Positions 361-30,384 of a stretch of 35,105 bases of DNA are shown one piece after another (position 1 is the stretch's first letter; each line of letters starts with the position of its first letter). Origin of the DNA: Thermodesulfovibrionia bacterium (GTDB lineage Bacteria > Nitrospirota > Thermodesulfovibrionia > Thermodesulfovibrionales > SM23-35); NCBI GenBank assembly GCA_041478735.1, contig JBGOWS010000003.1:1-35105 (forward strand). The letters are read 5' to 3'. The notes beneath the pieces were generated by a model. The model was not told the origin of the DNA. It was given only the letters and a program-made list of their open reading frames with translations, and made no database searches. The position numbers and the translations under genes were made by a program.

Positions 361-570
361 ACCTAAATGTTGCAAACATTTTTTCAATATAAGGGCAGAT
401 ATGCTGAAAAAGGCCTGTAGCAACACCTTATAGCCGCACAGACTGGCCTGCCAGCCTTCTGCCAAATGCACAAACTGTGAGATTTGCAGTCATGTGTATC
501 ATAAATAATATCTTGTTGCATTACAGGGGTTTTTCAGCATGTCTGCCATTGTTTTATGCAACTAATGAGT
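361..570. mobile_element. ~210-bp MITE-like structured repeat, copy 1 (divergent copy)
   Basis: Ends ACCTAAATGTTGCA...TGCAACTAATGAGT. Inner inverted arms GGCAGATATGCTGAAAAAGGCCTGTA / TACAGGGGTTTTTCAGCATGTCTGCC. Shares the core CAGTCATGTGTATCATAA with copies 2 and 3. Confidence 0.75.
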
Positions 571-591
571 AAAGATTATGTAATTCCTTTA

Positions 592-1662
592 TTATGGGAT
601 ATTTAAAGGTAATCCTTGAAACTTGAGTTTAAGTCCAAGCCTATTATAACATCTGTTATCTATTTTTCCATCCATTAAGGATAAAATTGTTGATACATGG
701 CACTTCTCAACAGCAAAATTATTTTTAATTGATTCGTATAAAGATGCCAATAGATATTTCCTTGCAACGGTTTTTTTGCCTTTTAATAGGGCGATTTCTC
801 CAAGTTCAAACCTGCAGTAGATTATCCCTCTTGGATCTTTTGTCTTCTTGAAAAGCATCATTGCCTTGATAAGATAATCATGAGCCATTTTATAGTTGCC
901 GATCATCTTATGAGTTATTGCCAAACCCCATATGGTATATGAATAACTTACCTTATCACCTATTTTTTTATATAGCCTGGTTGCCTTTGAAAAATTGGTA
1001 AAGGCACTTTCATAATCTTTTAACATTCTATGGGCATTTCCAATGCCGCAATAAGAATAGGCTTTCCCGAATGTGTCTTTTATATTGGAGAATAACCTGT
1101 TTGCAGAGATATAGTAATTGAAGGAATCTTTAAATCGCCCGGCAATACGGGATGTACCACCGAGGCCGCATAGACAATAACCGACTCCCTGCATGTCTTT
1201 AATAGATTTAAATATCTTATAGGATTCTTTGAAAATCCTGATTGCACCGGGAATATCCCCTTTTATTCTTAAGGCTCCTGCCTCTGCCCATAGCGTAAAA
1301 GCAATACCCTGCCTGTCGCCTTTTTTCTGATATATTTTTTTTGATTCACGGATGAGTCTTACAGCTTCCTTCCACTTACCCTGTGCCCTCAATGCTAGAC
1401 CCAACCCAACCTTGGCATCAGCAACCTTAATAGAAGCCCTGGTTTTTTTAGCAAGTTCAATTGCATTAGCGTAACTTTTTGCAGAAAGTTCAAAATTGCC
1501 TACCATCCTGTAAGTATCACCTAACGAAAACATGCAGTGGAATATTCCATCCTGGTCACATATTTTAGTGTATCCCTGCAGTGCCTTTTTGAACAATCTG
1601 AGAGATTGCGGATAAAAGGACTTTTCTCTCAGCTTTTCTGCCTGGGAAAGAATGTTATCCAT
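592..1662 (-). CDS. Tetratricopeptide-repeat protein (~40-aa helical repeats)
   Basis: Repeated LG..YR..G....A...Y..A units. Start placed at ATG 1662, which overlaps the rpe stop; the ORF track starts at 1701. Confidence 0.75.
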   Translation of the reverse strand: MDNILSQAEKLREKSFYPQSLRLFKKALQGYTKICDQDGIFHCMFSLGDTYRMVGNFELSAKSYANAIELAKKTRASIKVADAKVGLGLALRAQGKWKEAVRLIRESKKIYQKKGDRQGIAFTLWAEAGALRIKGDIPGAIRIFKESYKIFKSIKDMQGVGYCLCGLGGTSRIAGRFKDSFNYYISANRLFSNIKDTFGKAYSYCGIGNAHRMLKDYESAFTNFSKATRLYKKIGDKVSYSYTIWGLAITHKMIGNYKMAHDYLIKAMMLFKKTKDPRGIIYCRFELGEIALLKGKKTVARKYLLASLYESIKNNFAVEKCHVSTILSLMDGKIDNRCYNRLGLKLKFQGLPLNIP

Positions 1663-2314
1663 TTTTAAGAATTTCTCTAAATTGTTTAATAACTGTTCCA
1701 TAATTTTTAGAATTAAAAAAAGCAGAACCCATTACAAGAATATCTGCCCCTGCAGATATAATTTCCGGCGCATTCTCGAGTTTTACACCACCGTCTACCT
1801 CTATAAGAGTTGAAAGCCCTTTCTCTCTGAGAAGTTTTTTTAATATTTTTATTTTTTCAATGACCTCTGGAATAAATTCCTGTCCACCAAAGCCCGGATT
1901 TACAGACATCAGGAGTGCAATGTCTGTGTATGGCAGTATATGCTCAAGGTTCCATACAGGGGTTGCAGGGTTAAGCGAGACGCCAGCCTTTACCCCGCTT
2001 TCCTTTATCCACTGAACTGTCCTGTGCAGGTGCACAGAGGCCTCATAATGGACTGTCAGGTAATCAGCACCTGCTTTTATAAAATCCCTCAGATATTTGT
2101 CTGGTTCCTCAATCATGAGGTGGACGTCAAGTGGTAAAGAGGTAATCTTACGGATCGACTCTACTATAGAGGGGCCTATGGTTATGTTAGGGACAAAATG
2201 TCCATCCATAATATCGATGTGGAGCATATCAGCCCCTGCTGCCTCGGCTGCCTGTATCTCTTCGCCGAGTTTCAGAAAATCGGCAGATAGTATTGAAGGT
2301 GCTATCTTTGTCAT
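1655..2314 (-). CDS. rpe: Ribulose-phosphate 3-epimerase
   Basis: KIAPSILSADF, HIDIMDGHFVPN, MSVNPGFGGQ and EVDGG motifs. Confidence 0.97.
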   Translation of the reverse strand: MTKIAPSILSADFLKLGEEIQAAEAAGADMLHIDIMDGHFVPNITIGPSIVESIRKITSLPLDVHLMIEEPDKYLRDFIKAGADYLTVHYEASVHLHRTVQWIKESGVKAGVSLNPATPVWNLEHILPYTDIALLMSVNPGFGGQEFIPEVIEKIKILKKLLREKGLSTLIEVDGGVKLENAPEIISAGADILVMGSAFFNSKNYGTVIKQFREILKNG

Positions 2315-2343
2315 ATTATCTCCGGGAATTCATGATTTAAAAT

Positions 2344-3063
2344 TTAAAATAAATTAAAGTGAAATATATTCTCAGATAGTTTTAAGAAGATTTTATCACT
2401 CGCCTTTATCTGTTTACCAGGTGCAGGCTTTTGTGATTCTATTATCTCTCCTTCACCGCTAATTTGTATTTGTAGGTTCAGCTTTTTTATAATTTCATTA
2501 GCCTGTTCAAGAGACATGCCTTTGAAATCAGGACAGTAATAGATTATATCATATGGGCCACGACTGACAAGTATCGTGATATTGGTACTCAGCTGCTCAT
2601 CAGGTTCAGGTTTTTGAGCTAAAATTCTGCCTTTTTCAACTGTGTCTGAATGGACCATTATTACTTTTGCTATCTTCAGTCCTTTCTGAAGCAGTATGGA
2701 TTCAGCATTTGATAGTGTTTCGTTGACCAGGAGGGGAATTGATTTTACACTCGGGCCTTTGCTAAGAATGACTTTTACAGTTCTTCGTTCTTTAACCTTA
2801 TTCCCTGCCGGTACATCCTGTCTAAGTATGTTTCCTGCAGGGACAGTAGAATCATAATCTTCACCCTCAATCTTGATGTATAACCCATTCTTTGTAAGGA
2901 GTTTATTTGCTTCCAGGAGGCTCTTCCCGTATAGTTCAGGAACCTCAACTGTCCGGCTAAAACTCAGAATCTTGAAACTAAGATAGCCAAAGATGAGCCC
3001 CAGTAAAATGAATGTGAGTATATAAAGAGGAAACTTTATTAAATTACTTTTTTCTTTATGCAT
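2344..3063 (-). CDS. Membrane-anchored PASTA-domain protein (3 PASTA repeats)
   Basis: N-terminal TM helix, then VPELYGKSL...Q...AG, IPLLVNETL...Q.P.P and CPDFKGMSL...Q.PAPG. GGAG precedes ATG 3063; the ORF-track start at 3078 lies inside repeat copy 2. Confidence 0.85.
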   Translation of the reverse strand: MHKEKSNLIKFPLYILTFILLGLIFGYLSFKILSFSRTVEVPELYGKSLLEANKLLTKNGLYIKIEGEDYDSTVPAGNILRQDVPAGNKVKERRTVKVILSKGPSVKSIPLLVNETLSNAESILLQKGLKIAKVIMVHSDTVEKGRILAQKPEPDEQLSTNITILVSRGPYDIIYYCPDFKGMSLEQANEIIKKLNLQIQISGEGEIIESQKPAPGKQIKASDKIFLKLSENIFHFNLF

Positions 3064-3074
3064 CTTTACTCCAG

Positions 3075-3263
3075 GCATTTATGATGCAGATGTGCTGGAA
3101 AAGCTCTGCCAGCAACACATTATATGCCTATAGCCTGGCCAGCCAGCCTTTATCCAAAAAGCACTAAAGGTTAAATGTACAGTCATGTGTATCATAATCA
3201 AATCTCGTTGCTTTGCAGAGGTTTTTCAGTATGTCTGCATCATATTTTATGCAACATTTAGGT
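3075..3263. mobile_element. MITE-like structured repeat, copy 2 (left end missing)
   Basis: Near-identical to 11280-11469 (about 9 differences by eye). Right end TGCAACATTTAGGT. Inner arms ATGATGCAGATGTGCTGGAAAAGCTCTGC / GCAGAGGTTTTTCAGTATGTCTGCATCAT. Confidence 0.8.
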
Positions 3264-3797
3264 AGTCTTGCCAAAAAACTCTATTGCCTCTTTAACTTTC
3301 GCTAAATCAACGCTGGTGTTAAGACATGGTCCGAATGGGCGTTCATTTGTTATTCCCAATACCGGGAGCGGATAAGTGTCAACTATTCCGCTGCTCAAGT
3401 CGTTCTCACATGCAACGGCAACAACTGCTTCTGGTTTTATTTCGTTTATAATCCTCCGTGCAAGAGAACCGCCTGTTGCAACAAAAAGTTCTAAAAGGTT
3501 TTCATCAGCAATCTGAATCAGGTCTTTAATCTCACACCTGCCGCATCTTTCACAATTATAAATGTTATAGGTAAGTCTGATGTTGCATTCATTTATCTGA
3601 AGACAATGTGGTAATAGAAGCAATATCTTTTTTGTATGTGACCTTTCTTTTTTAACAAGTTTGTTATTAAGGCTAATAATAAACTTCTGAAAAGATTCTT
3701 TTTTGTTTTTTAAAAAAGACCCGGCGAACATAAGTAGAGGATATAAAATTTTAAGTGTAATACCTCTGACCCATCTACGATTAATCAAAAAAGGCAC
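3258..3797 (-). CDS. DUF116 family Cys-rich protein
   Basis: LLLPHCLQ...C..CGRC...VATGGSLAR...AVACE.DL..G...GPCLNT. Usual position after fmt. Confidence 0.85.
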   Translation of the reverse strand: MPFLINRRWVRGITLKILYPLLMFAGSFLKNKKESFQKFIISLNNKLVKKERSHTKKILLLLPHCLQINECNIRLTYNIYNCERCGRCEIKDLIQIADENLLELFVATGGSLARRIINEIKPEAVVAVACENDLSSGIVDTYPLPVLGITNERPFGPCLNTSVDLAKVKEAIEFFGKTT

Positions 3798-4698
3798 CCT
3801 CTTTTAATCGTCTCCCCTGAAGGAAGGCTTTAGCAGACATCGGTTTTTTGCCCTCCGGTTGAAGCTCAATTATTAAGATTAGCGCTTCTCCAGTCCCCAC
3901 GATAAATTTTTCACCTGTCTTCTCAATCCTGCCGGGTGAACCAGGGCCTTCGAGTACCTTTGCCCTGGTAATTTTAATCCTTTCTTTATTTAGATAACAA
4001 TAGGCACATGGCCACGGATACATACCCCGGATAAAATTAAATATCTCTTTTGCAGTCTTTGACCAATTAAGCCTTCCATCCTCTTTCTTAAAAGAGGCGG
4101 CATAACTTGGAGTCCCTGCCTGGGGGGTTGGTTTAATAGATCCGTCTTTTATGCCCTTTATAGTTTTAACCAGCAGTGATGCACCTAACTCTGCGAGCCT
4201 TTTGCCAAGAGTCTCTGCATTATCATCATCGTGTATTTCTGTCTCTTCCTGTAACAGGATATTACCTGTGTCAAGTCCTTCATCCATGAGCATTGTAGTT
4301 ATGCCTGTCTTTTTTTCACCGTTAATTATAGCCCACTGGATTGGAGCTGCTCCCCTGTATTTCGGTAACAGCGAGGCATGCACACTGATACAGCCATGAG
4401 AAGGGAGCTTAAGAATTTGTGCAGGCAATATCTTTCCATATGCAACAACAACAATGAGTTCAGGCATTGTGTTGGAAAGCCTGTCAAAAAAAAGAGGGTC
4501 TTTTGTATTTATTGGCTGTAAAACCATAATTCCATTATCGATAGCAAATTCTTTAACTGGTGGGGGGAAAGATATACTACTTCTTCCTTTTCTTTTGTCA
4601 GGCTGCGTAACAACTGCAAGGACCTCTTCTCCTGAATGAATGAGGGCAGTGAGTGAAGGGACGGCAAATAAAGGTGTGCCAAAGAATACTATGCGCAT
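3781..4698 (-). CDS. fmt: Methionyl-tRNA formyltransferase
   Basis: MRIVFFGTP, VVTQPDK, HASLLPKYRGAAPIQ and MDEGLDTG motifs. Confidence 0.96.
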   Translation of the reverse strand: MRIVFFGTPLFAVPSLTALIHSGEEVLAVVTQPDKRKGRSSISFPPPVKEFAIDNGIMVLQPINTKDPLFFDRLSNTMPELIVVVAYGKILPAQILKLPSHGCISVHASLLPKYRGAAPIQWAIINGEKKTGITTMLMDEGLDTGNILLQEETEIHDDDNAETLGKRLAELGASLLVKTIKGIKDGSIKPTPQAGTPSYAASFKKEDGRLNWSKTAKEIFNFIRGMYPWPCAYCYLNKERIKITRAKVLEGPGSPGRIEKTGEKFIVGTGEALILIIELQPEGKKPMSAKAFLQGRRLKEGAFFD

Positions 4699-4700
4699 CT

Positions 4701-4779
4701 TAATTTTAAGTTAAAATTATCAATGAGCAATTATCAGGTCAAATGTCCAATGATAATTTTGCATTGATAATTGCTCATT
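4701..4779. repeat. Intergenic palindromes (9-bp and 15-bp inverted repeats)
   Basis: TAATTTTAA-G-TTAAAATTA at 4701-4719. AATGAGCAATTATCA (4722-4736) / TGATAATTGCTCATT (4765-4779). Confidence 0.7.
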
Positions 4780-4811
4780 TTTTTGTAGAGTAGTCCCATA
4801 TCCCACTTTTA

Positions 4812-5330
4812 TCACTTTTTGCTTGTCGCTGTCTTTAAAAACTTTTTATATCGTCTCTTAAAAAACTCCCTTTTAATAGGACTTATCATGTCAATAATAA
4901 GGAGGCCGTCGAGATGATCTATTTCATGCTGCAGGGCTCTGGCGAGAAGACCTGTCCCTTCTATCTCCAGGGTCTTACCTTCTCTATTAAGACCCCTCAC
5001 ATATACCCTTTCGGCCCTTTTTATAGTTGTCGAATATCCGGGGATGCTCAGACATCCTTCTTCAGTCTCAACCAGGCCTTCTTTTTCAATTATTACAGGG
5101 TTTATCAGTACTATAAGTGATCTCTTGTCTTCTTTTAGACTTGTATCAATCACACATAATCTCTTTGAAATACCTATCTGATTTGCTGCGAGTCCCACAC
5201 CCTTTGCAGCATACATTGTCTCTATCATGTCGTCTATAAGGTGCTGGATATGAGAGTCTATATTTTCTAAAGGGGTTGACTTTTCTTTTAGAATCTTTTC
5301 TGGAAATTTTTTTATATCGAGTAAAGCCAT
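4812..5330 (-). CDS. def: Peptide deformylase
   Basis: GVGLAANQIG, EGCLS and QHEIDHLDG motifs. Confidence 0.97.
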   Translation of the reverse strand: MALLDIKKFPEKILKEKSTPLENIDSHIQHLIDDMIETMYAAKGVGLAANQIGISKRLCVIDTSLKEDKRSLIVLINPVIIEKEGLVETEEGCLSIPGYSTTIKRAERVYVRGLNREGKTLEIEGTGLLARALQHEIDHLDGLLIIDMISPIKREFFKRRYKKFLKTATSKK

Positions 5331-5532
5331 TTTTTATTATAAAACATTTCAGGTATATATATAATTGGGCGAATTTTCTTGACGTGGTACTTATGTGCAA
5401 TGTAGAATTTTATGCCTTCAGAAATTCACTGCAGGTATAGAATATCCTATAAGAAAAATTTTGAAATATAAGAATAAGATTGTTTATTATAGATATTGTT
5501 CGGAGTGGTGAGAAATACATTCCACAGAATTT

Positions 5533-7302
5533 TTGCTTGGAGGTTTAGGAATTAAGGATATCAACATTAATTCCAATGAGGATTGGAAGACTTACAGGCA
5601 CAGCACATCCCATATAATGGCTCATGCTGTGAAAGAACTCTTCCCTGATGCAAAACTTGCAATAGGTCCTGCAACAGATGAAGGTTTTTATTATGATTTT
5701 GATCTGGACAGGACTTTTATACCAGAAGACCTCTCTTCGATAGAAAAAAAGATGTCAGAGATAACAAGACAAAACAATCTATTTGTGCGCAAGATTGTTT
5801 CGCGGGAAGAGGCGATCGATCTATTTAGGAAAAAAGGTGAGTATTACAAGGTTGAACTTCTCGATGAGATAACAGACGAAGAGGTCTCTTTATACGAAGA
5901 AGGCGATTTTATAGACCTTTGCAGGGGGCCTCATATCAACTCTACAGGCCAGGTTTCTGCATTTAAATTATTGAGTATTGCAGGTGCATATTGGCGCGGG
6001 GATGAAAAGAATAAGATGCTCCAGAGGATTTATGGTACAGCGTTTACAGAGGAGAAGGATTTAAAGAAATACCTCGATTTCCTTGAGGAAGTTAAGAAAA
6101 GGGACCACAGAAGGCTTGGCAGGGAACTTGATCTGTTCAGCGTCAGTGAGGAAATAGGTGCTGGACTTATCATCTGGCACCCAAACGGTGCATTGATAAG
6201 AAGGACAATAGAAAATTTCTGGCTGGATGAACATTATAAGGCGGATTACAAAATTCTTTATACCCCTCATATAGCTAAACTAAATCTATGGCAGAAGAGC
6301 GGCCACCTGGATTTTTACAGGGAGAATATGTATTCTCCAATGGAGATCGAGGGGGTAGACTATGAGATTAAGCCTATGAATTGTCCTTTCCACATTCATG
6401 TATATAAAACTTCATTGAGGAGTTATAAGGACCTTCCAATAAGATATGCTGAATTAGGAACGGTCTATAGGTATGAACGTTCTGGCGTACTACATGGCCT
6501 TTTACGTGTCAGAGGTTTTACACAGGACGATGCACATATATTCTGCAGGGATGAACAGATAGAGGATGAGATACTGAGTGTCCTTGAGTTTACTCTCTTC
6601 ATACTGAAGGTCTTTGGTTTTGAGCACTATGATATTTATCTTTCTACAAGACCTGAAAAGTATGTTGGAAGTCTTGAGAACTGGGAAAGGTCAACCAATG
6701 CCCTTAAAAAGGCGCTTGAATTAAAGGGGCTTTCATATGAGATAGATATGGGAGAGGGCGTTTTTTATGGTCCTAAAATAGACATAAAAGTTAAAGATTC
6801 TCTTAACAGGCCCTGGCAGTGCAGCACTATACAGGTTGATTTCAATAACCCCGAAAGGTTTGATATAAAATACAGAGGAAGTGATGGCAAAGAACACAGG
6901 CCTATAATGATACACAGGGCGTTGATGGGGTCTTTAGAGAGGTTTTTCGGGATACTGATAGAACATTATGCAGGGGCATTTCCTCTATGGCTTGCACCTG
7001 TGCAGGTTGAGATACTTACAATTGCTGAGAGGCATACTGATTATGCGTTATCCTTACATAAAAAGTTGAGATCAGAAGGAATAAGGACTATACTAAATGT
7101 TGACAACGAAAAGATTGGCTATAAAATCAGGAATGCTACTATAAGGAAAGTGCCATATTTGGTTATAATAGGGGATAAGGAAGAATCAGAAAAGAAGGTT
7201 ACTGTCAGAAAACGTACAGGTGAAAATATAGGCCCATTCACAATAGATGAATTTATCAATAGAATAAAAGTCATGCAAAGGGATAAGAGTTTAGAAATTT
7301 GA
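5533..7302 (+). CDS. thrS: Threonine--tRNA ligase lacking the N-terminal TGS domain; true start may be ATT at 5551
   Basis: RHSTSHIMA, DLCRGPH, KRDHRRLG, KPMNCP, LLRVRGFTQDDAH, FYGPKID and HRALMGSLERF motifs. Confidence 0.97.
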   Translation: MLGGLGIKDININSNEDWKTYRHSTSHIMAHAVKELFPDAKLAIGPATDEGFYYDFDLDRTFIPEDLSSIEKKMSEITRQNNLFVRKIVSREEAIDLFRKKGEYYKVELLDEITDEEVSLYEEGDFIDLCRGPHINSTGQVSAFKLLSIAGAYWRGDEKNKMLQRIYGTAFTEEKDLKKYLDFLEEVKKRDHRRLGRELDLFSVSEEIGAGLIIWHPNGALIRRTIENFWLDEHYKADYKILYTPHIAKLNLWQKSGHLDFYRENMYSPMEIEGVDYEIKPMNCPFHIHVYKTSLRSYKDLPIRYAELGTVYRYERSGVLHGLLRVRGFTQDDAHIFCRDEQIEDEILSVLEFTLFILKVFGFEHYDIYLSTRPEKYVGSLENWERSTNALKKALELKGLSYEIDMGEGVFYGPKIDIKVKDSLNRPWQCSTIQVDFNNPERFDIKYRGSDGKEHRPIMIHRALMGSLERFFGILIEHYAGAFPLWLAPVQVEILTIAERHTDYALSLHKKLRSEGIRTILNVDNEKIGYKIRNATIRKVPYLVIIGDKEESEKKVTVRKRTGENIGPFTIDEFINRIKVMQRDKSLEI

Positions 7303-7419
7303 ATTTTAGATTTTTCAAATTAAGTGTATAATTTTTGTAAAAGTTTTTTTCTAAAGTATTCGACTAAAGAATAGATTTATAAATTGGAGTTTTGAAGTCA
7401 AGATTCAGGAGGTGAGAGT

Positions 7420-7914
7420 ATAACTAGTAATATAAGAGTTAATGAACAGATAAGAGCGAAGGAAGTCAGGCTGATAGACGTTGATGGAACGCAACTTGGT
7501 GTTGTACCATTAAGCGATGCATTAAAGATTGCTGACGAAAGAGATCTTGACCTCGTAGAAGTAGCATCAAATGTTGTCCCTCCGGTCTGTAAGGTATTAG
7601 ATTTTGGAAAATACAGGTACCAGTTAAGCAAGAGGCAGACACAGAGGAAAACGATCGGGGTTAAAGAGATCAAGATCAGGCCTCAAATAACAGAAAACGA
7701 TCTCGGGCTGAAGGTGAAAAATGTCAGACGTTTTCTTGATGATGGTAACAAGGCTAAGATAACGATGTTTTTTAGAGGCAGGGAGATTGTCAGGCCTGAA
7801 TTGGGTATGAAGGTATTCGAAAGGATGATTCAATTACTTACCGGAAAGTTTAACATTGAACAGGGACCAAAACTTTTAGGTAAAAGTATAACAATGGTTA
7901 TCGCGCCGAAGTAA
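7420..7914 (+). CDS. infC: Translation initiation factor IF-3 (ATA start)
   Basis: AGGAGGTG at 7407-7414, then ATA ACT AGT AAT ATA AGA GTT AAT GAA CAG (..IRVNEQIRAKEVRLID..PPVCKVLDFGKY). In frame with track ORF 7714-7914. A non-canonical start is typical of infC. Confidence 0.93.
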   Translation: MTSNIRVNEQIRAKEVRLIDVDGTQLGVVPLSDALKIADERDLDLVEVASNVVPPVCKVLDFGKYRYQLSKRQTQRKTIGVKEIKIRPQITENDLGLKVKNVRRFLDDGNKAKITMFFRGREIVRPELGMKVFERMIQLLTGKFNIEQGPKLLGKSITMVIAPK

Positions 7915-7951
7915 TCAGTGTAAGTTAAGGATATAAGTGGAGGAAGATGAA

Positions 7952-8149
7952 ATGCCAAAGATTAAAACCCATAGAGGGGCAGCAAAGAGATTTAAAGTTA
8001 CAGGTACAGGGAAGATAATGAGATGGAAAGGGTATAAGAGCCATCTTCTTACTGGAAAATCTTCAAAGAGGACAAAAAAGTTGAGAAAAGCGGCTTTAGT
8101 TTCTGATAGTGATTATGCTAATAGTAAAAGACTTATACCATACTTATAA
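7952..8149 (+). CDS. rpmI: 50S ribosomal protein L35
   Basis: [21 protein letters not shown]; located between infC and rplT. Confidence 0.97.
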
Positions 8150-8151
8150 AA

Positions 8152-8242
8152 AAGTTAAGAGTGTTAAGTTATAAGTTGAAAGTTTTAAGAAATCAAACTA
8201 TTTAATTTAAAACTTAGAACTTAAAATAGAGAACTCAGAACT
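8152..8242. repeat. Heptamer-periodic imperfect palindrome (AAGTT.. arm / ..AACT arm)
   Basis: AAGTTAT AAGTTGA AAGTTTT ... AACTTAG AACTTAA ... AACTCAG AACTGAT between rpmI and rplT. Confidence 0.6.
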
Positions 8243-8260
8243 GATATTTGGGAGGAATAG

Positions 8261-8608
8261 ATGCCAAGGGCAAAAGGTGGATTTAAGACAAGGAGAAGAA
8301 GAAAGAAGGTATTAGAAAGGGCGAAAGGCTACTATGGATCTAAAAGCCGCCTTTACAGGGTTGCTACAGAAGCTGTTGATAAGGCGCTGCAATATGCATA
8401 TAGGGATCGTAGAGCGAAGAAGCGGGAATTTCGGTCTCTCTGGATTATCAGGATAAATGCTGCTGTACGTGCGTTTGGGCTTAGTTATAGCCAGTTTATG
8501 TCAAGACTGAAGAATGCAAATATAGCATTAAACAGGAAAGCGCTTGCGGATATGGCTTACAATGATCCATCTGCTTTCAGTCAACTCGTAGAAAAAGTAA
8601 AAAATTAA
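8261..8608 (+). CDS. rplT: 50S ribosomal protein L20
   Basis: MPRAKGG...AKGYYG...[24 protein letters not shown]. Confidence 0.97.
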
Positions 8609-8616
8609 ATTAAGAA

Positions 8617-9630
8617 GTGGAGTACCTCCTTTCTCTAAAAAATTCATTTCTTGAAGAATCAAAATCAGCCACATCTTTAGCTAAACTCCAGCAGCTAAGG
8701 ATAAAATATTTAGGTAAAAAGGGTCTTGTTACATCAAAACTTAAGACCCTTTCCACAATCGCTCCCGAGTTAAGACCGGCATACGGCAAAGCAATCAATG
8801 AAGTTAAGGATTATATCGAAGAAGAAATAAACAGGTTGGAGGCTCTTCTTAAAAAAGAAGAGCACAAGAAGCGCATCCTATCAGAGGCAATAGATATAAC
8901 CCTGCCAGGGAAGTTTACACCGTTTGGGAGAGAGCATCCTATTAATAAAGTACTTTCTGAAATAATCGGGATATTTGTTTCAATGGGTTTCGAGGTTGAA
9001 GAGGGCCCTGAGGTAGAACTCGACTATTATAATTTTGAAGCATTAAATATGCCGAAGGACCATTCTGCCAGGGACATGCAGGATACATTTTATATTTCTG
9101 ATGATATTGTCCTCAGGACCCACACCTCTCCTGTCCAGATAAGGGTTATGGAAAAAAGGAAGCCACCTTTAAAGGTTATTGCTCCTGGAAAAGTCTACAG
9201 GTGCGATGCAGATGTATCCCATACCCCGATGTTCCACCAGGTAGAGGGGTTCATGGTTGATACAGATATCGCATTCAGCGATCTCAAGGGGGTATTGGAA
9301 TCAGTTATCCACAGCTTTTTTGGTGTGGAGACCCCTGTTAGATTCAGGCCGAGTTTTTTCCCGTTTACAGAGCCGAGTGCTGAGGTGGATATAGGGTGCA
9401 TTTTCTGTTCCGGGAAGGGATGCAGGGTGTGTAAGAGCACGGGATGGCTTGAGATATTAGGCGCGGGTATGATAAATCCGAATGTGTTCGAGATGGTCGG
9501 GTACGACCCTGAGATTTATTCAGGGTTTGCATTTGGAATGGGTGTGGAGAGGATGACCATGCTCAAGTATTCTATAGATGATATAAGACTGTTCTTTGAG
9601 AATGATATGCGGTTCTTAAGGCAGTTTTGA
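8617..9630 (+). CDS. pheS: Phenylalanine--tRNA ligase alpha subunit
   Basis: [33 protein letters not shown] and [10 protein letters not shown] motifs. Confidence 0.97.
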
Positions 9631-9670
9631 TGAAATAAAGTTGTCAGGTGTATTTTTCGTGTCGATTTAG

Positions 9671-9741
9671 GCATAACGCCTTGCGGGTAGCCGTTTGCCT
9701 TACACTTCTCAGGACTAAAAAATCCGCAGTGTTTGTTGGGC
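9671..9741. other. attC-like imperfect palindrome just downstream of the MetF-like gene
   Basis: Minus strand reads GCCCAAC (RYYYAAC)...TGCGG...CCGCA...GTTATGC. 71 bp, starting 15 bp after the stop. Central pairing is weak. Confidence 0.4.
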
Positions 9742-9755
9742 TCAGTTGTCGAATA

Positions 9756-10502
9756 TTATTCCAATAATATTCGCGTCAAATACTCTTTTAAATCAATTTT
9801 AATTGGCATAAAATATACATTATAGTTATTATTTTTACTGAATTCTAATACCTTTTTTGAGAATTTCACATTCCATTCTAAATTATGTTCAAAATCTTTT
9901 GGGAATACTGCACGGTTTCTTGTTTCCCAATATAATTTTGACTGTTCTGATATAACAGGACTAATTCCCCAGTAAATATTTTTGGTTTCTATTTTTTCGG
10001 CATATATTTCTAATAACCTAATATCGAAAAATGGTTGTGTAAAAAAACCATCAATCCCTGCGTCAATTTTTCTATTTATATATTCTAATTCATCTCTTAT
10101 ATTACTTCTGTATTGATCTATTCCACCATATATTTTTATATCAGGGATTTCTTTTTTTATCTTTTTTGAAAATTCAACTGTTGTTGTTGGGTATATCTTT
10201 TTAGTCATAACTTGAGGATCATCTCCTCGAATCACAAGTATTTCATTAATATTGTTTTTTTGGAAATATTCTTTTAGCTTAAAATCTGATTTTAAGTCAA
10301 AATCTATTGCACGTATATGAGGTATACATTTATTACAATATTTATTTACAACTTCACAGGCAACCCAGCTTCTTATTTCAAAGCGTAACAAATCAGGGAT
10401 ATTTACAGCAGTTATTTGTCTAAAGCTTGTTTTTACAAGGTTTAATTCATGCTTTAATTGTTCATAATTTCGTGGAACCAATTCAATTGATATTAATGAC
10501 AT
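9756..10502 (-). CDS. Short methylenetetrahydrofolate reductase (MetF) family protein, AT-rich
   Basis: ISIELVP, VNIPD, IPHIRAID, LVIRGD and KIDAG.DGFFTQPFFD motifs. Visibly more AT-rich than the flanking genes. Confidence 0.8.
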   Translation of the reverse strand: MSLISIELVPRNYEQLKHELNLVKTSFRQITAVNIPDLLRFEIRSWVACEVVNKYCNKCIPHIRAIDFDLKSDFKLKEYFQKNNINEILVIRGDDPQVMTKKIYPTTTVEFSKKIKKEIPDIKIYGGIDQYRSNIRDELEYINRKIDAGIDGFFTQPFFDIRLLEIYAEKIETKNIYWGISPVISEQSKLYWETRNRAVFPKDFEHNLEWNVKFSKKVLEFSKNNNYNVYFMPIKIDLKEYLTRILLE

Positions 10503-10563
10503 TTTTTAATCCTTTATTTCGGCAATTGCACACAACGTCCAAGGCTTTGCGCCGTGCCGCCCG

Positions 10564-10860
10564 TCAATCTTGATTATTTTTTATTTTTGAAAAGTCTCTT
10601 TTCCCATGAATTAATGCAAGGATTTCAACCTTATTGAGGAATACTTCGTAAATAAGACGGTACGAATATATTATCAACTCTCGAATTTTAGGATCACCTA
10701 TTTCCAAAACGATTCTGCCGATCTCAGGAAAGATATTTAATTTTTCGGATTTCTCAACGATTTCAAGTTATACTTTTTTAGCATAGAATTTCGAATCTCT
10801 TGCAATATAGTCATGAATTGACTTTAAATCTTGCTTTGCAGGCCCTGTCCACCTTACCAC
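10564..10860 (-). pseudogene. RelE/ParE-family toxin with in-frame TAA
   Basis: Manual translation: VVRWTGPAKQDLKSIHDYIARDSKFYAKKV*LEIVEKSEKLNIFPEIGRIVLEIGDPKIRELIIYSYRLIYEV...EILALIHGKRDF. TAA at 10768-10770. Confidence 0.85.
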
Positions 10861-11033
10861 GCTTGCATTTCTCGTTTTAAGTCCTCAATAGATATTGAAT
10901 CACCACGTTCTGCTGCCTCTCTGCCTTTTTTGACTTTATCAATTAAATAAAGTTCGTACATTATATCATCGACATTTGCCGTATCAGGTAATTTTGAAAT
11001 TACCCTGAGTGCCTCCTGCTTTAGAGTCTCCAT
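10854..11033 (-). CDS. Putative antitoxin (59 aa) paired with the ParE-type toxin
   Basis: METLKQEALRVISKLPDTANVDDIMYELYLIDKVKKGREAAERGDSISIEDLKREMQAW. GGAGGTG RBS; its stop overlaps the toxin GTG. Not in the ORF track. Confidence 0.8.
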   Translation of the reverse strand: METLKQEALRVISKLPDTANVDDIMYELYLIDKVKKGREAAERGDSISIEDLKREMQAW

Positions 11034-11203
11034 TATTTACACCTCCTTACACTTTGGTTAGCAATATTTTAGCATTTTTGCGGTTTTTAGTTGCCATGTA
11101 GATAGCAATTTTTTCTTTTGATGTAAAATTGTGTATTCCTGGTTTTGCTATTCCTCGTCAGTATTTAGCTTTGAAAGGAGTTTTCACACAATCTGACGTT
11201 ATC

Positions 11204-11248
11204 AGGCCAAAAGAAGTGTGATAGCATTTTGATTAAATCTTTTGGCCT
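11204..11248. repeat. 11-bp perfect inverted repeat next to repeat copy 3
   Basis: AGGCCAAAAGA (11204-11214) / TCTTTTGGCCT (11238-11248). Confidence 0.6.
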
Positions 11249-11254
11249 ATGTTA

Positions 11255-11469
11255 ACCCACCAGTTGCAAAACAGTTTATGCATTTATGATGCAGATGTGC
11301 TGGGAAAGCTCTGCCAGTAACACATTATAGTCCTAATAGCCTGGCCAGCCAGCCTTTATCCAAAAGGCACTAAAGGTTAAATGTACAGTCATGTGTATCA
11401 TAATCAAATCTCGTTGCTTTGCAGAGGTTTTTCAGCATGTCTGCATCATATTTTATGCACCATTTGGGT
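11255..11469. mobile_element. ~215-bp MITE-like structured repeat, copy 3 (complete)
   Basis: Ends ACCCACCAGTTGCA...TGCACCATTTGGGT, flanked by TA on both sides. Same inner 29-bp arms as copy 2. Confidence 0.8.
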
Positions 11470-12058
11470 TAATAATGCTTTTTTAATTCAAATAGAACCT
11501 GTTTGGCAATAGACTTAAGGGTTTCAAAAACTCCTTTCCCTGTTACGGCAACAGCTTCGAACCAGAGAACATTACGGTGATTCAGTATTTTATTCATCTC
11601 CTCAAGAGGAACAATGTTAGGGAGATCTCGCTTGTTGTGCTGTATTATAAATGGAAGTTTTTCAAGCTCATAACCCTGTTCCGCAAGGTTTATCTGCAGG
11701 TCGTCTATGCTTTCCATATTGGATTCCATCCTTTCTATCTGGCTGTCCGCAACAAAGACAACGCCGTCAACACCCTTGAGTATGAGCTTTCTGCTGGCAG
11801 CATAGAAGACCTGGCCAGGAACAGTATAAAGGTGAAATCTTATCTTGAAACCTTTGATATCTCCCAGGGCTAAAGGAAGAAAGTCAAAGAAAAGTGTCCT
11901 TTCTGCCTCTGTTGCAAGAGATATAAGTTTTCCTTTTTGTTCAGGGTTTGTTCGCTTATAAATATACTGGAGGTTCGTGGTCTTCCCGCAGAGACCTGGA
12001 CCATAATAAACAATCTTACAGTTGATTTCACGTGAGGAGTAATTAATATAAAAGACAC
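11469..12058 (-). pseudogene. mglA: MglA small Ras-like GTPase, frameshifted at codon 4
   Basis: GTG TCT TTT [AT] ATT AAT TAC. Removing 2 nt (12048-12049) gives [29 protein letters not shown]...RTLFFDFLP...TVPGQV...NKRDL, 195 aa. Confidence 0.9.
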
Positions 12059-30083: not shown

Positions 30084-30161
30084 TGGCGGGGTGGACGGGA
30101 ATTGAACCCGCGACCTCTGGCTTGACAGGCCAGCGTTCTAACCGAGCTGAACTACCACCCC
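30084..30161 (-). tRNA. tRNA-Asp(GTC)
   Basis: GGGGTGG...CTGGC-CTGTCAA-GCCAG...GGTTCAATTCC...CCACCCCGCCA cloverleaf with encoded CCA. Confidence 0.97.
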
Positions 30162-30308: not shown

Positions 30309-30384
30309 TGGTAGGCGGAACAGGGCTTGAACCTGTGACATCAGCCTTGTAAGGGCTGCGCTCTCCCAACTGAGCTATCCGCCC
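30309..30384 (-). tRNA. tRNA-Val(TAC)
   Basis: GGGCGGA...CAGCC-CTTACAA-GGCTG...GGTTCAAGCC...TCCGCCTACCA. Confidence 0.97.

Follow-up and report, generated by a model that had tools for sequence, protein, structure and literature searches.

The window analyzed here, which comprises 35,105 nt of contig JBGOWS010000003.1 (assembly GCA_041478735.1 of a Thermodesulfovibrionia bacterium, the genome referred to below as G000), carries three co-oriented + strand copies of one repeat. The repeat is a miniature inverted-repeat transposable element (MITE), non-autonomous and ~213 bp long. Comparison of its copies revealed a long covarying stem. Nearly every imperfection in it is of a type (G-T or purine-purine) that pairs on the + strand and opens on the − strand, and selection maintains the fold of the + strand by itself. 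The ends of the MITE and its 4-bp target duplication match those of an intact IS1380-family insertion sequence (IS) of a sister genus. Most copies lie with the folding strand antisense to their neighboring genes, and we give slightly less than an even chance to the reading that the element is a polar, one-way transcription barrier persisting mainly where it is antisense. The MITE identity is ordinary; the one-strand fold and the opposite-strand orientation rule are unusual together.

Selection on the fold of one strand

The stem was analyzed in a main alignment of 102 copies from 15 genomes, each copy covering at least 150 positions of a sequence-only profile, and covariation was tested in a separate MAFFT alignment of 52 copies. 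In the 102-copy alignment, a stem of 35 pairs (columns 31–67 with 157–196, with small conserved loops between) closes a core of 89 nt, and the terminal repeats contribute six further pairs. In copy 3 of the window, the left arm of the stem (model columns 31–67) occupies 11285–11321 (+), the core 11322–11410 (+), and the right arm (model columns 157–196), followed by a T-rich stretch, 11411–11450 (+). The covarying stem measures 37 bp, and over these 37 named pairs 95.5% of the cells in the 52 copies are paired, with changes on both sides in 20 pairs. RNAalifold applied to the same alignment returned 31 pairs, 19 of them with compensatory changes. None of 500 shuffles reached the observed value in any of the five measures taken, and sliding the partner by 1–3 columns reduced the pairing to 37–51%.

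Inspection of single pairs showed how the stem has changed. Pair 36:191 is GC in 76 copies and TA in 12, and pair 60:167 is CG in 83 copies and TA in three; these are the double compensatory changes that the original prediction had read from copy 1, and they are real. Pairs 56:171 and 57:170 alternate between CG and TA, and pair 59:168 varies among GC, TA, and AT. The upper stem is free in sequence (GCTCTGC/GCAGAGG, GCCCGAC/GGCGGGG, and GCTTTTC/GAAAAGG all occur), whereas the G-G mismatch 54:173, the asymmetric internal loop of C61 opposite T165–T166, and a tandem U-G/G-U are fixed across subfamilies. The fixed loops within a variable upper stem therefore point to independent compensatory substitutions rather than wholesale re-copying of one arm. 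The columns of the basal stem are nearly invariant in sequence. The inner arm pair of ~29 bp noticed earlier is real. As for the pairings that were thought to continue inward from it, GCAAC/GTTGC is kept throughout the family, while TTAT/ATAA, GACTG/CAGTC, and CCTTTA/TAAAGG either show no covariation or are for the most part unpaired.

The mismatches of the stem are skewed toward one strand. The pair cells of the stem and terminal repeats comprise 3221 Watson-Crick, 246 G-T, 56 A-C, 167 purine-purine, and 68 pyrimidine-pyrimidine combinations, with G-T exceeding A-C in 25 column pairs and A-C exceeding G-T in 10. Since the copies are related, events were also counted by parsimony on a FastTree tree, which gave 83 changes from Watson-Crick to G-T versus 39 from Watson-Crick to A-C (binomial p = 8e-5). 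Back-changes numbered 35 from G-T and three from A-C, and 73 switches occurred between Watson-Crick pairs. The G-T:A-C skew of events is 61:29 on terminal branches and 22:10 on internal branches. In columns outside the stem and terminal-repeat pairs, transitions of the G-T-making and A-C-making types are balanced (357 versus 349), and a strand-biased mutation spectrum is therefore excluded. The strand-biased pairing suspected from three copies, including the arms of copy 2, in which four of the five non-Watson-Crick positions are indeed G-T and none is A-C, is accordingly no mutational artifact. Equal G-T and A-C counts without covariation, the outcome that was to speak against a functional fold, were not what we found over many copies. 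It is the + strand, folded by itself, that selection maintains, because a cruciform or a protein site in double-stranded DNA would give no skew.

Predicted folding energies agree in direction. The consensus energy from RNAalifold over the 102 copies is −33.2 kcal/mol for the + strand versus −6.9 kcal/mol for the − strand. Copy 3 alone folds at −74.7 (z = −6.2) on the + strand and −60.2 (z = −2.4) on the − strand, and copy 1 at −70.0 versus −66.3. The + strand is the more stable one in 47 of 68 copies, and in 57 of 68 when DNA energy parameters are used. An uninterrupted helix of at least 20 bp is formed by 29 of 67 copies on the + strand versus two of 67 on the − strand, and T makes up a fraction of 0.57 of the 8 nt immediately 3′ of the stem on the + strand, versus 0.28 on the − strand. 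Kinship within subfamilies makes the cell counts overstate independence, the parsimony tree derives from short sequences, and the mean energy difference between the strands is only ~3 kcal/mol over the 68 copies.

The core enclosed by the stem contains two strongly conserved blocks, GGCCAGCCAGCC and CAGTCATGTGTATCATAAT, both present in copy 3. A consensus fold of the central 89 nt was sought on both strands and none was found, and the core of copy 3 lacks a conserved open reading frame (ORF). Searching Rfam 15 at the gathering threshold returned only two tRNA genes in the window, at 30087–30161 and 30312–30384 (both −), and no family for the element. Below the threshold, the best match on copy 3 was a microRNA model at 21.4 bits versus the 84 needed, a chance match. 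About half of the full copies in G000 carry, nested in the core, a G+C-rich double hairpin of ~35 nt. This hairpin belongs to a separate repeat family of ~40 nt with the form AATCCCCCC..CCCCCC-TTnnnAA-GGGGGG..GGGGGGATT, plus a CCCTCCCCC/GGGGGAGGG variant, for which a pattern search gave 147 matches outside the MITE (for example C8:6708, C26:4462, and C65:2470) and 15 inside. Nested examples lie in the MITE copies at C244:7049–7293, C256:1818–2063, and C17:3752–3994, and the small repeat is inserted at the identical spot of the core in several subfamilies.

Transposon ends, copies, and partner insertion sequence

Both ends of the element carry terminal inverted repeats that read CC(C/T)A, three variable nucleotides, and GTTGCA(A/T)AA, with the element running CC...GG. 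Among the 38 copies whose profile alignment spans both ends, 28 are flanked by a perfect 4-bp direct repeat and five more agree at three of the four bases; the perfect duplications fall in 13 of 15 copies of G000 and 15 of 23 copies of other genomes. The duplication follows the consensus T(T/C)(T/A)A, and TTAA (6), TTTA (6), and TCTA (5) are the commonest of the 28. Outer repeats of the form AC...GT had been proposed. The repeats themselves are real, with the left one lost in copy 2, but the terminal A and T are bases of the target duplication. The suggested kinship to IS982, which had rested on these AC...GT ends, therefore finds no support, since in copies 1 and 3 the two bases belong to the duplication and the ends match an IS1380-family IS (IS982 transposases were not searched for).

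In the G000 assembly (2.27 Mb in 316 contigs), two rounds of nhmmer detected 46 non-overlapping loci, 19 of them end to end and many at contig ends. The repeats account for breaks in the assemblies of this uncultured Nitrospirota family. No conserved ORF was found on the gene-sense (−) strand: reading from a conserved ATG/GTG, the stops vary, and the commonest open lengths are 10, 18, and 21 codons. The ends, the target duplication, the dispersed copies, and the lack of a conserved ORF identify the family as a MITE, as had been supposed.

An intact IS with matching ends was found in G023, a genome of a sister genus, which holds several copies with a transposase assigned to PF13701 (DDE_Tnp_1_4) at 151 bits versus a cut-off of 34.7. 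An alignment of two of these copies extends over 1535 bp with 99.6% identity, and the IS accounts for 1520 bp. Its ends, resolved only by comparing these two copies, are CTTTGCAGTTGCATAAA on the left and, read inward, CCCTAACGTTGCATTAAA on the right, and its target duplications are TTTA and TTAT. GTTGCAT stands at positions 8–14 of both IS ends, as in the MITE, and the duplications are of equal length; the left end of the IS reads CTTTGCA + GTTGCAT and that of copy 3 (11256–11269, +) CCCACCA + GTTGCAA. The original proposal to look for a transposase with the same terminal repeats thus led to an IS1380-type IS in G023 and to none in G000, where the assembly (91% complete) has zero PF13701 matches and a search by end pairs for an autonomous copy returned only MITEs and chance pairs. 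The long end-pair candidates on contigs C191 and C40 hold ordinary genes. A strict pattern of the end motif was absent from 16 other transposase loci fetched with PF01609 and PF13701, and the IS1380-type IS of G011 was rejected as a partner because its ends differ. From these sequence matches, we infer that an IS1380-type transposase supplied in trans probably mobilizes the MITE. The finding ties a bacterial MITE to the IS1380/piggyBac lineage with its TTAA-like target.

The MITE profile did not match the interior of the G023 IS at E values up to 10, and the stem is absent from the IS; the MITE interior is therefore a passenger. Capture of adjacent DNA by IS1380 members through misreading of an end is reported in PMC9330008, and by analogy such capture would be a plausible origin of the passenger. 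At two loci of G000 (C30, ~480–690; C177, ~5510–5770), the same ends enclose another cargo, rich in hairpins, and are bordered by perfect TATA duplications; this is a second non-autonomous element on IS1380-type terminal repeats. Lone IS1380-type ends also occur at C64:18944 and C251:1038. A 56-bp remnant at C13:2810–2865, consisting of two terminal repeats and a few stem bases, is an internal deletion derivative. Within the first ~120 nt of the G023 IS (locus L214) lies a long hairpin, GGCCTCCT...AGGAGGCC, in which the ribosome-binding site ahead of the transposase's GTG start codon would be buried; it is likely a translational brake.

In a public genome collection, the true matches were metagenome-assembled genomes of Nitrospirota or Thermodesulfovibrionia, and many other rows were chance matches to a 15-base pattern. 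Taking a match to the stem-and-core region at E ≤ 1e-5 as presence, we found that 30 of the 57 genomes in the window's family, representing 21 of its 26 genera, have the module. When the order Thermodesulfovibrionales was sampled evenly, it was present in 21 of 37 genomes of this family, two of 38 genomes of a second family, and none of 175 genomes from eleven other families. Its occurrence is patchy inside genera, as expected of a mobile element. Searches of plasmid and phage collections gave no match. Matches across genera are mostly 70–85% identical; a single copy in another genus (G013:C1:111370–111537, locus L031) is 91% identical to the youngest subfamily of G000, and this higher identity suggests a recent transfer between genera.

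Within the window, copy 1 occupies 362–569 (+) between TAAA duplications at 358–361 and 570–573 and is a full-length member of a divergent subfamily. Copy 2 (~3073–3262, +) has lost its left terminal repeat and lacks approximately the first 24 model positions. Copy 3 (11256–11468, +), a full-length member of the youngest subfamily, ends in its right terminal repeat at 11455–11468 (+), is flanked by TTAA at 11252–11255 and 11469–11472, and has copies of 94–97% identity on several other contigs. When copy 3 was used as the query against its own genome, E values went down to 1e-109, with copy 2 at 4.8e-82 (95% identity) and copy 1 at 3.7e-28 (76% identity), so that the three co-oriented copies first noticed in the window are members of one family. 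The neighboring ORFs of all three copies are on the − strand. Copy 1 lies between a pgsA-like ORF and an ORF for a TPR protein, copy 2 between an ORF for a PASTA-domain protein and an unnamed ORF upstream of fmt, and copy 3 between a MetF-like ORF and an 86-aa ORF. The stop codon of ORF 11469–11729 (−) is formed by the first three bases of the right duplication of copy 3, and that of ORF 3258–3797 (−) falls within the right terminal repeat of copy 2 (3258–3262), which supplies its TAA. The first possible start codon of ORF 2344–3078 (−) lies inside the truncated left end of copy 2 (3076–3078). Either the insertion of copy 2 reshaped both flanking gene ends, or the start call of ORF 2344–3078 is too long. 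To the left of copy 3, in an otherwise ORF-free stretch, ORFs 10564–10707 and 10854–11033 (both −; 47 and 59 aa) resemble by eye a shortened RelE/ParE-type toxin and its antitoxin and are candidates for such a pair.

Orientation toward genes and the possible role of the fold

Gene direction was approximated by the longest open frame within 750 bp on each side of 113 copies, and both sides could be called for 91. The + strand is antisense to both neighbors in 66 of these copies and sense in seven, while 10 lie between divergent and eight between convergent genes. The antisense position noticed for the three window copies is thus a general property of the family. By genome, the antisense:sense counts are 18:0 in G000, 11:0 in G011, 6:0 in G012, 5:0 in G021, and 4:0 in G020. 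In G005, two copies 3.7 kb apart point in opposite directions, each antisense to its local genes. In G023, where dnaA at 1.75 Mb served as a proxy for the origin, the + strand is the leading-strand sequence in seven of 19 copies (7 versus 12), which gives no clear replichore rule. The G005 pair, together with the G023 counts, points to an orientation that follows transcription, not replication. Copies reside in short spacers inside gene clusters, with median residual spacers of ~35 nt, and 26 of 82 copies have the upstream gene's stop codon −16 to +5 nt from their right end, often within the target duplication. Host operon mRNAs would thus carry the poorly pairing − strand version of the element.

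The explanation that we favor, while holding it tentatively, is the polar barrier. An IS1380-type transposase acting in trans would insert the element. A + strand carried in host mRNA would form a long perfect duplex of at least 20 bp followed by a U-rich stretch, and it is nearly an even call whether such a duplex would have a polar effect, by terminating transcription or by attracting a double-strand RNase. Operons would then lose their sense insertions and keep the antisense ones. If this reading is true, the element is a natural one-way transcription block and shows how operons filter transposon insertions. Among contigs from four public RNA libraries, the element is covered in all four, with a summed depth of up to ~800 (X5) versus 0–7 in the flanks, although the contigs are unstranded, repeats collapse, and DNA carry-over is possible, so that the coverage is silent on both strand and expression.

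Several observations speak against a polar barrier. The two strands differ only modestly in folding energy. The orientation bias is weak in G023 (9:5), although the presence of intact IS copies there would fit insertion both ways followed by filtering. There is no enrichment (8 of 91) of spacers between convergent genes, where a terminator would do no harm or could even help. Sense and antisense copies do not differ in age, with median terminal branch lengths of 0.074 versus 0.075. A simple terminator scan reported zero sites at copy 3, its loop limit of 8 excluding the MITE stem, and canonical terminator hairpins are far shorter than this stem. A search for promoters inside the element gave no conserved one that could yield + strand RNA from antisense copies, sigma-70-like matches being confined at every model column to 11 or fewer of the 102 copies. 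Finally, the polar barrier leaves unaccounted for the upkeep of the + strand fold in antisense copies.

An unlikely but substantial alternative is that the + strand fold works as single-stranded DNA during transposition or replication, for spread or stability, much as in integron attC sites or REP elements, and that orientation is a by-product of the strand that becomes exposed. The excess of G-T over A-C is alike whether copies are sense (5.2% versus 1.7%) or antisense (6.4% versus 1.4%), which fits a property selected in source lineages, and a promoter for a + strand RNA was sought and none found. The advantage of the + strand under DNA energy parameters points the same way, and G-T is the least harmful mismatch in DNA hairpins too. 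Against this, the orientation of the G005 pair tracks local gene direction rather than position, the G023 copies obey no clear replichore rule, and the non-template strand exposed by host-gene transcription is the − strand. Internal hairpins are not known to be needed for IS1380 or piggyBac-type transposition, and identical ends also move other cargo.

Quite improbable is a plain palindromic MITE acting as double-stranded DNA, its arms kept alike by one protein that binds both or by a cruciform, whose asymmetry would come only from the host favoring a weakened hairpin on the mRNA strand. The basal stem is kept in sequence and not just in pairing, like a protein site; piggyBac-type elements have sub-terminal repeats besides their terminal ones; and the orientation bias shows that filtering at the host level acts. 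The upper stem, however, varies freely yet stays paired, which is unexpected for a sequence-specific site. A cruciform yields one G-T and one A-C per transition and hence no strand preference. The conserved mismatches are all mild on the + strand, a pattern that chance disruption of the mRNA-strand hairpin would not produce, and the asymmetric loops (G-G 54:173; C61 opposite T165–T166) persist across subfamilies.

We assign a low probability to a self-contained small-RNA gene, in which a ~170-nt + strand transcript would run from near the left end to the stem and U-rich stretch and act in trans or antisense to the 3′ end of the neighbor. Changes from A-U to G-C by way of G-U would be expected of an RNA and are seen at pair 43:184 (GT 44, AT 26, GC 23, AC 3). 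The U-rich stretch follows the stem, and the left end retains the hexamer TTGCA(A/T) where the IS has a possible −35. Small RNAs derived from a MITE have been described in Coxiella (PMC5896051). A TAnnnT hexamer, however, follows the left-end hexamer by 15–19 nt in only 10 of 69 copies, and nine of these 10 are TATGAT, the hexamer of copy 3's subfamily, at the poor spacing of 15 nt. Sigma-70-like matches reach 11 of 102 copies at most at any model column, the element has no Rfam family match, and the core has no supported fold.

It is similarly doubtful that the module of stem and core functions as single-stranded nucleic acid carried on IS1380/piggyBac-type ends. In one version, RNA made from the few sense copies by host read-through would be needed for spread or would control it; selection on these source copies would keep the + strand fold, and antisense copies would be silent, tolerated dead ends. 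If true, a DDE transposon would here be coupled to a mobile structured RNA, which has not been described for the IS1380 family. A fold serving the element itself would turn the module into a cofactor, made of structured RNA or DNA, that travels on IS1380-type ends. The mobile structured non-coding RNA of the original prediction is accordingly still hypothetical. Chance similarity or an assembly artifact has a negligible probability and was rejected: many copies do lie at contig ends of a fragmented assembly, but E values go down to 1e-109, and in 15 genomes copies are found inside long contigs, where their flanks are unique and target duplications border them.

Comparison with known systems

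The element resembles the IS1380 family (ISEcp1, ISPme1) in its CC ends, in GTTGCAT at positions 8–14, and in the 4-bp duplication, and the partner IS has a DDE_Tnp_1_4 transposase. It differs in lacking a transposase gene and in carrying a passenger unrelated to the IS interior. Among the matches listed in a literature search on IS1380 with MITE, judged by title or the start of the abstract, there was no IS1380-derived MITE. The ends of piggyBac are of the CCC...GGG type, and the element shares such ends and a 4-bp duplication in which TTAA is among the commonest sequences (6 of 28). In published trees (PMC10813416), the IS1380 transposases form the outgroup of piggyBac. This kinship fits the TTAA-like target of the MITE, which differs from piggyBac in accepting the looser target T(T/C)(T/A)A and in having a bacterial host.

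Correia/NEMIS in Neisseria and ERIC/IRU in enterobacteria are small, palindromic, MITE-like intergenic repeats that are co-transcribed with their neighbors, form long hairpins in RNA, and affect mRNA in a way that depends on their orientation. They are unrelated in sequence and derive from other parent IS families, whereas the MITE described here has a near-absolute orientation bias, directed against its best-folding strand. Copies of QMITE1 and QMITE2 of Coxiella burnetii fold into long rods, and some are expressed as small RNAs, as reported in PMC5896051. The likeness lies in MITE families with long rod folds; expression is documented for the Coxiella families only, and the present element shares neither their sequence nor their IS family. 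In PMC5896051, "covariation" has zero occurrences and the three uses of "G-U" stand in legends to predicted folds, with no test of G-U versus A-C. A literature search on MITE covariation and G-U testing listed no such test among its matches, and pairing "Thermodesulfovibrio" with "miniature inverted-repeat transposable" found nothing. Hairpin MITEs are common, and few have been tested for which strand is selected. Here three measures of one-strand selection agree, namely the compensatory changes, the mismatch skew with its mutation control, and the near-absolute orientation rule.

The attC sites of integrons are imperfect palindromes of which one strand, the complement of the cassette coding strand, folds into the active form. 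They are recombined by the integrase within arrays and have neither terminal repeats nor a target duplication. The MITE resembles them in its one-strand fold, which likewise lies on the strand opposite the coding strand of the genes, and differs from them in that its copies are dispersed and bear transposon ends.

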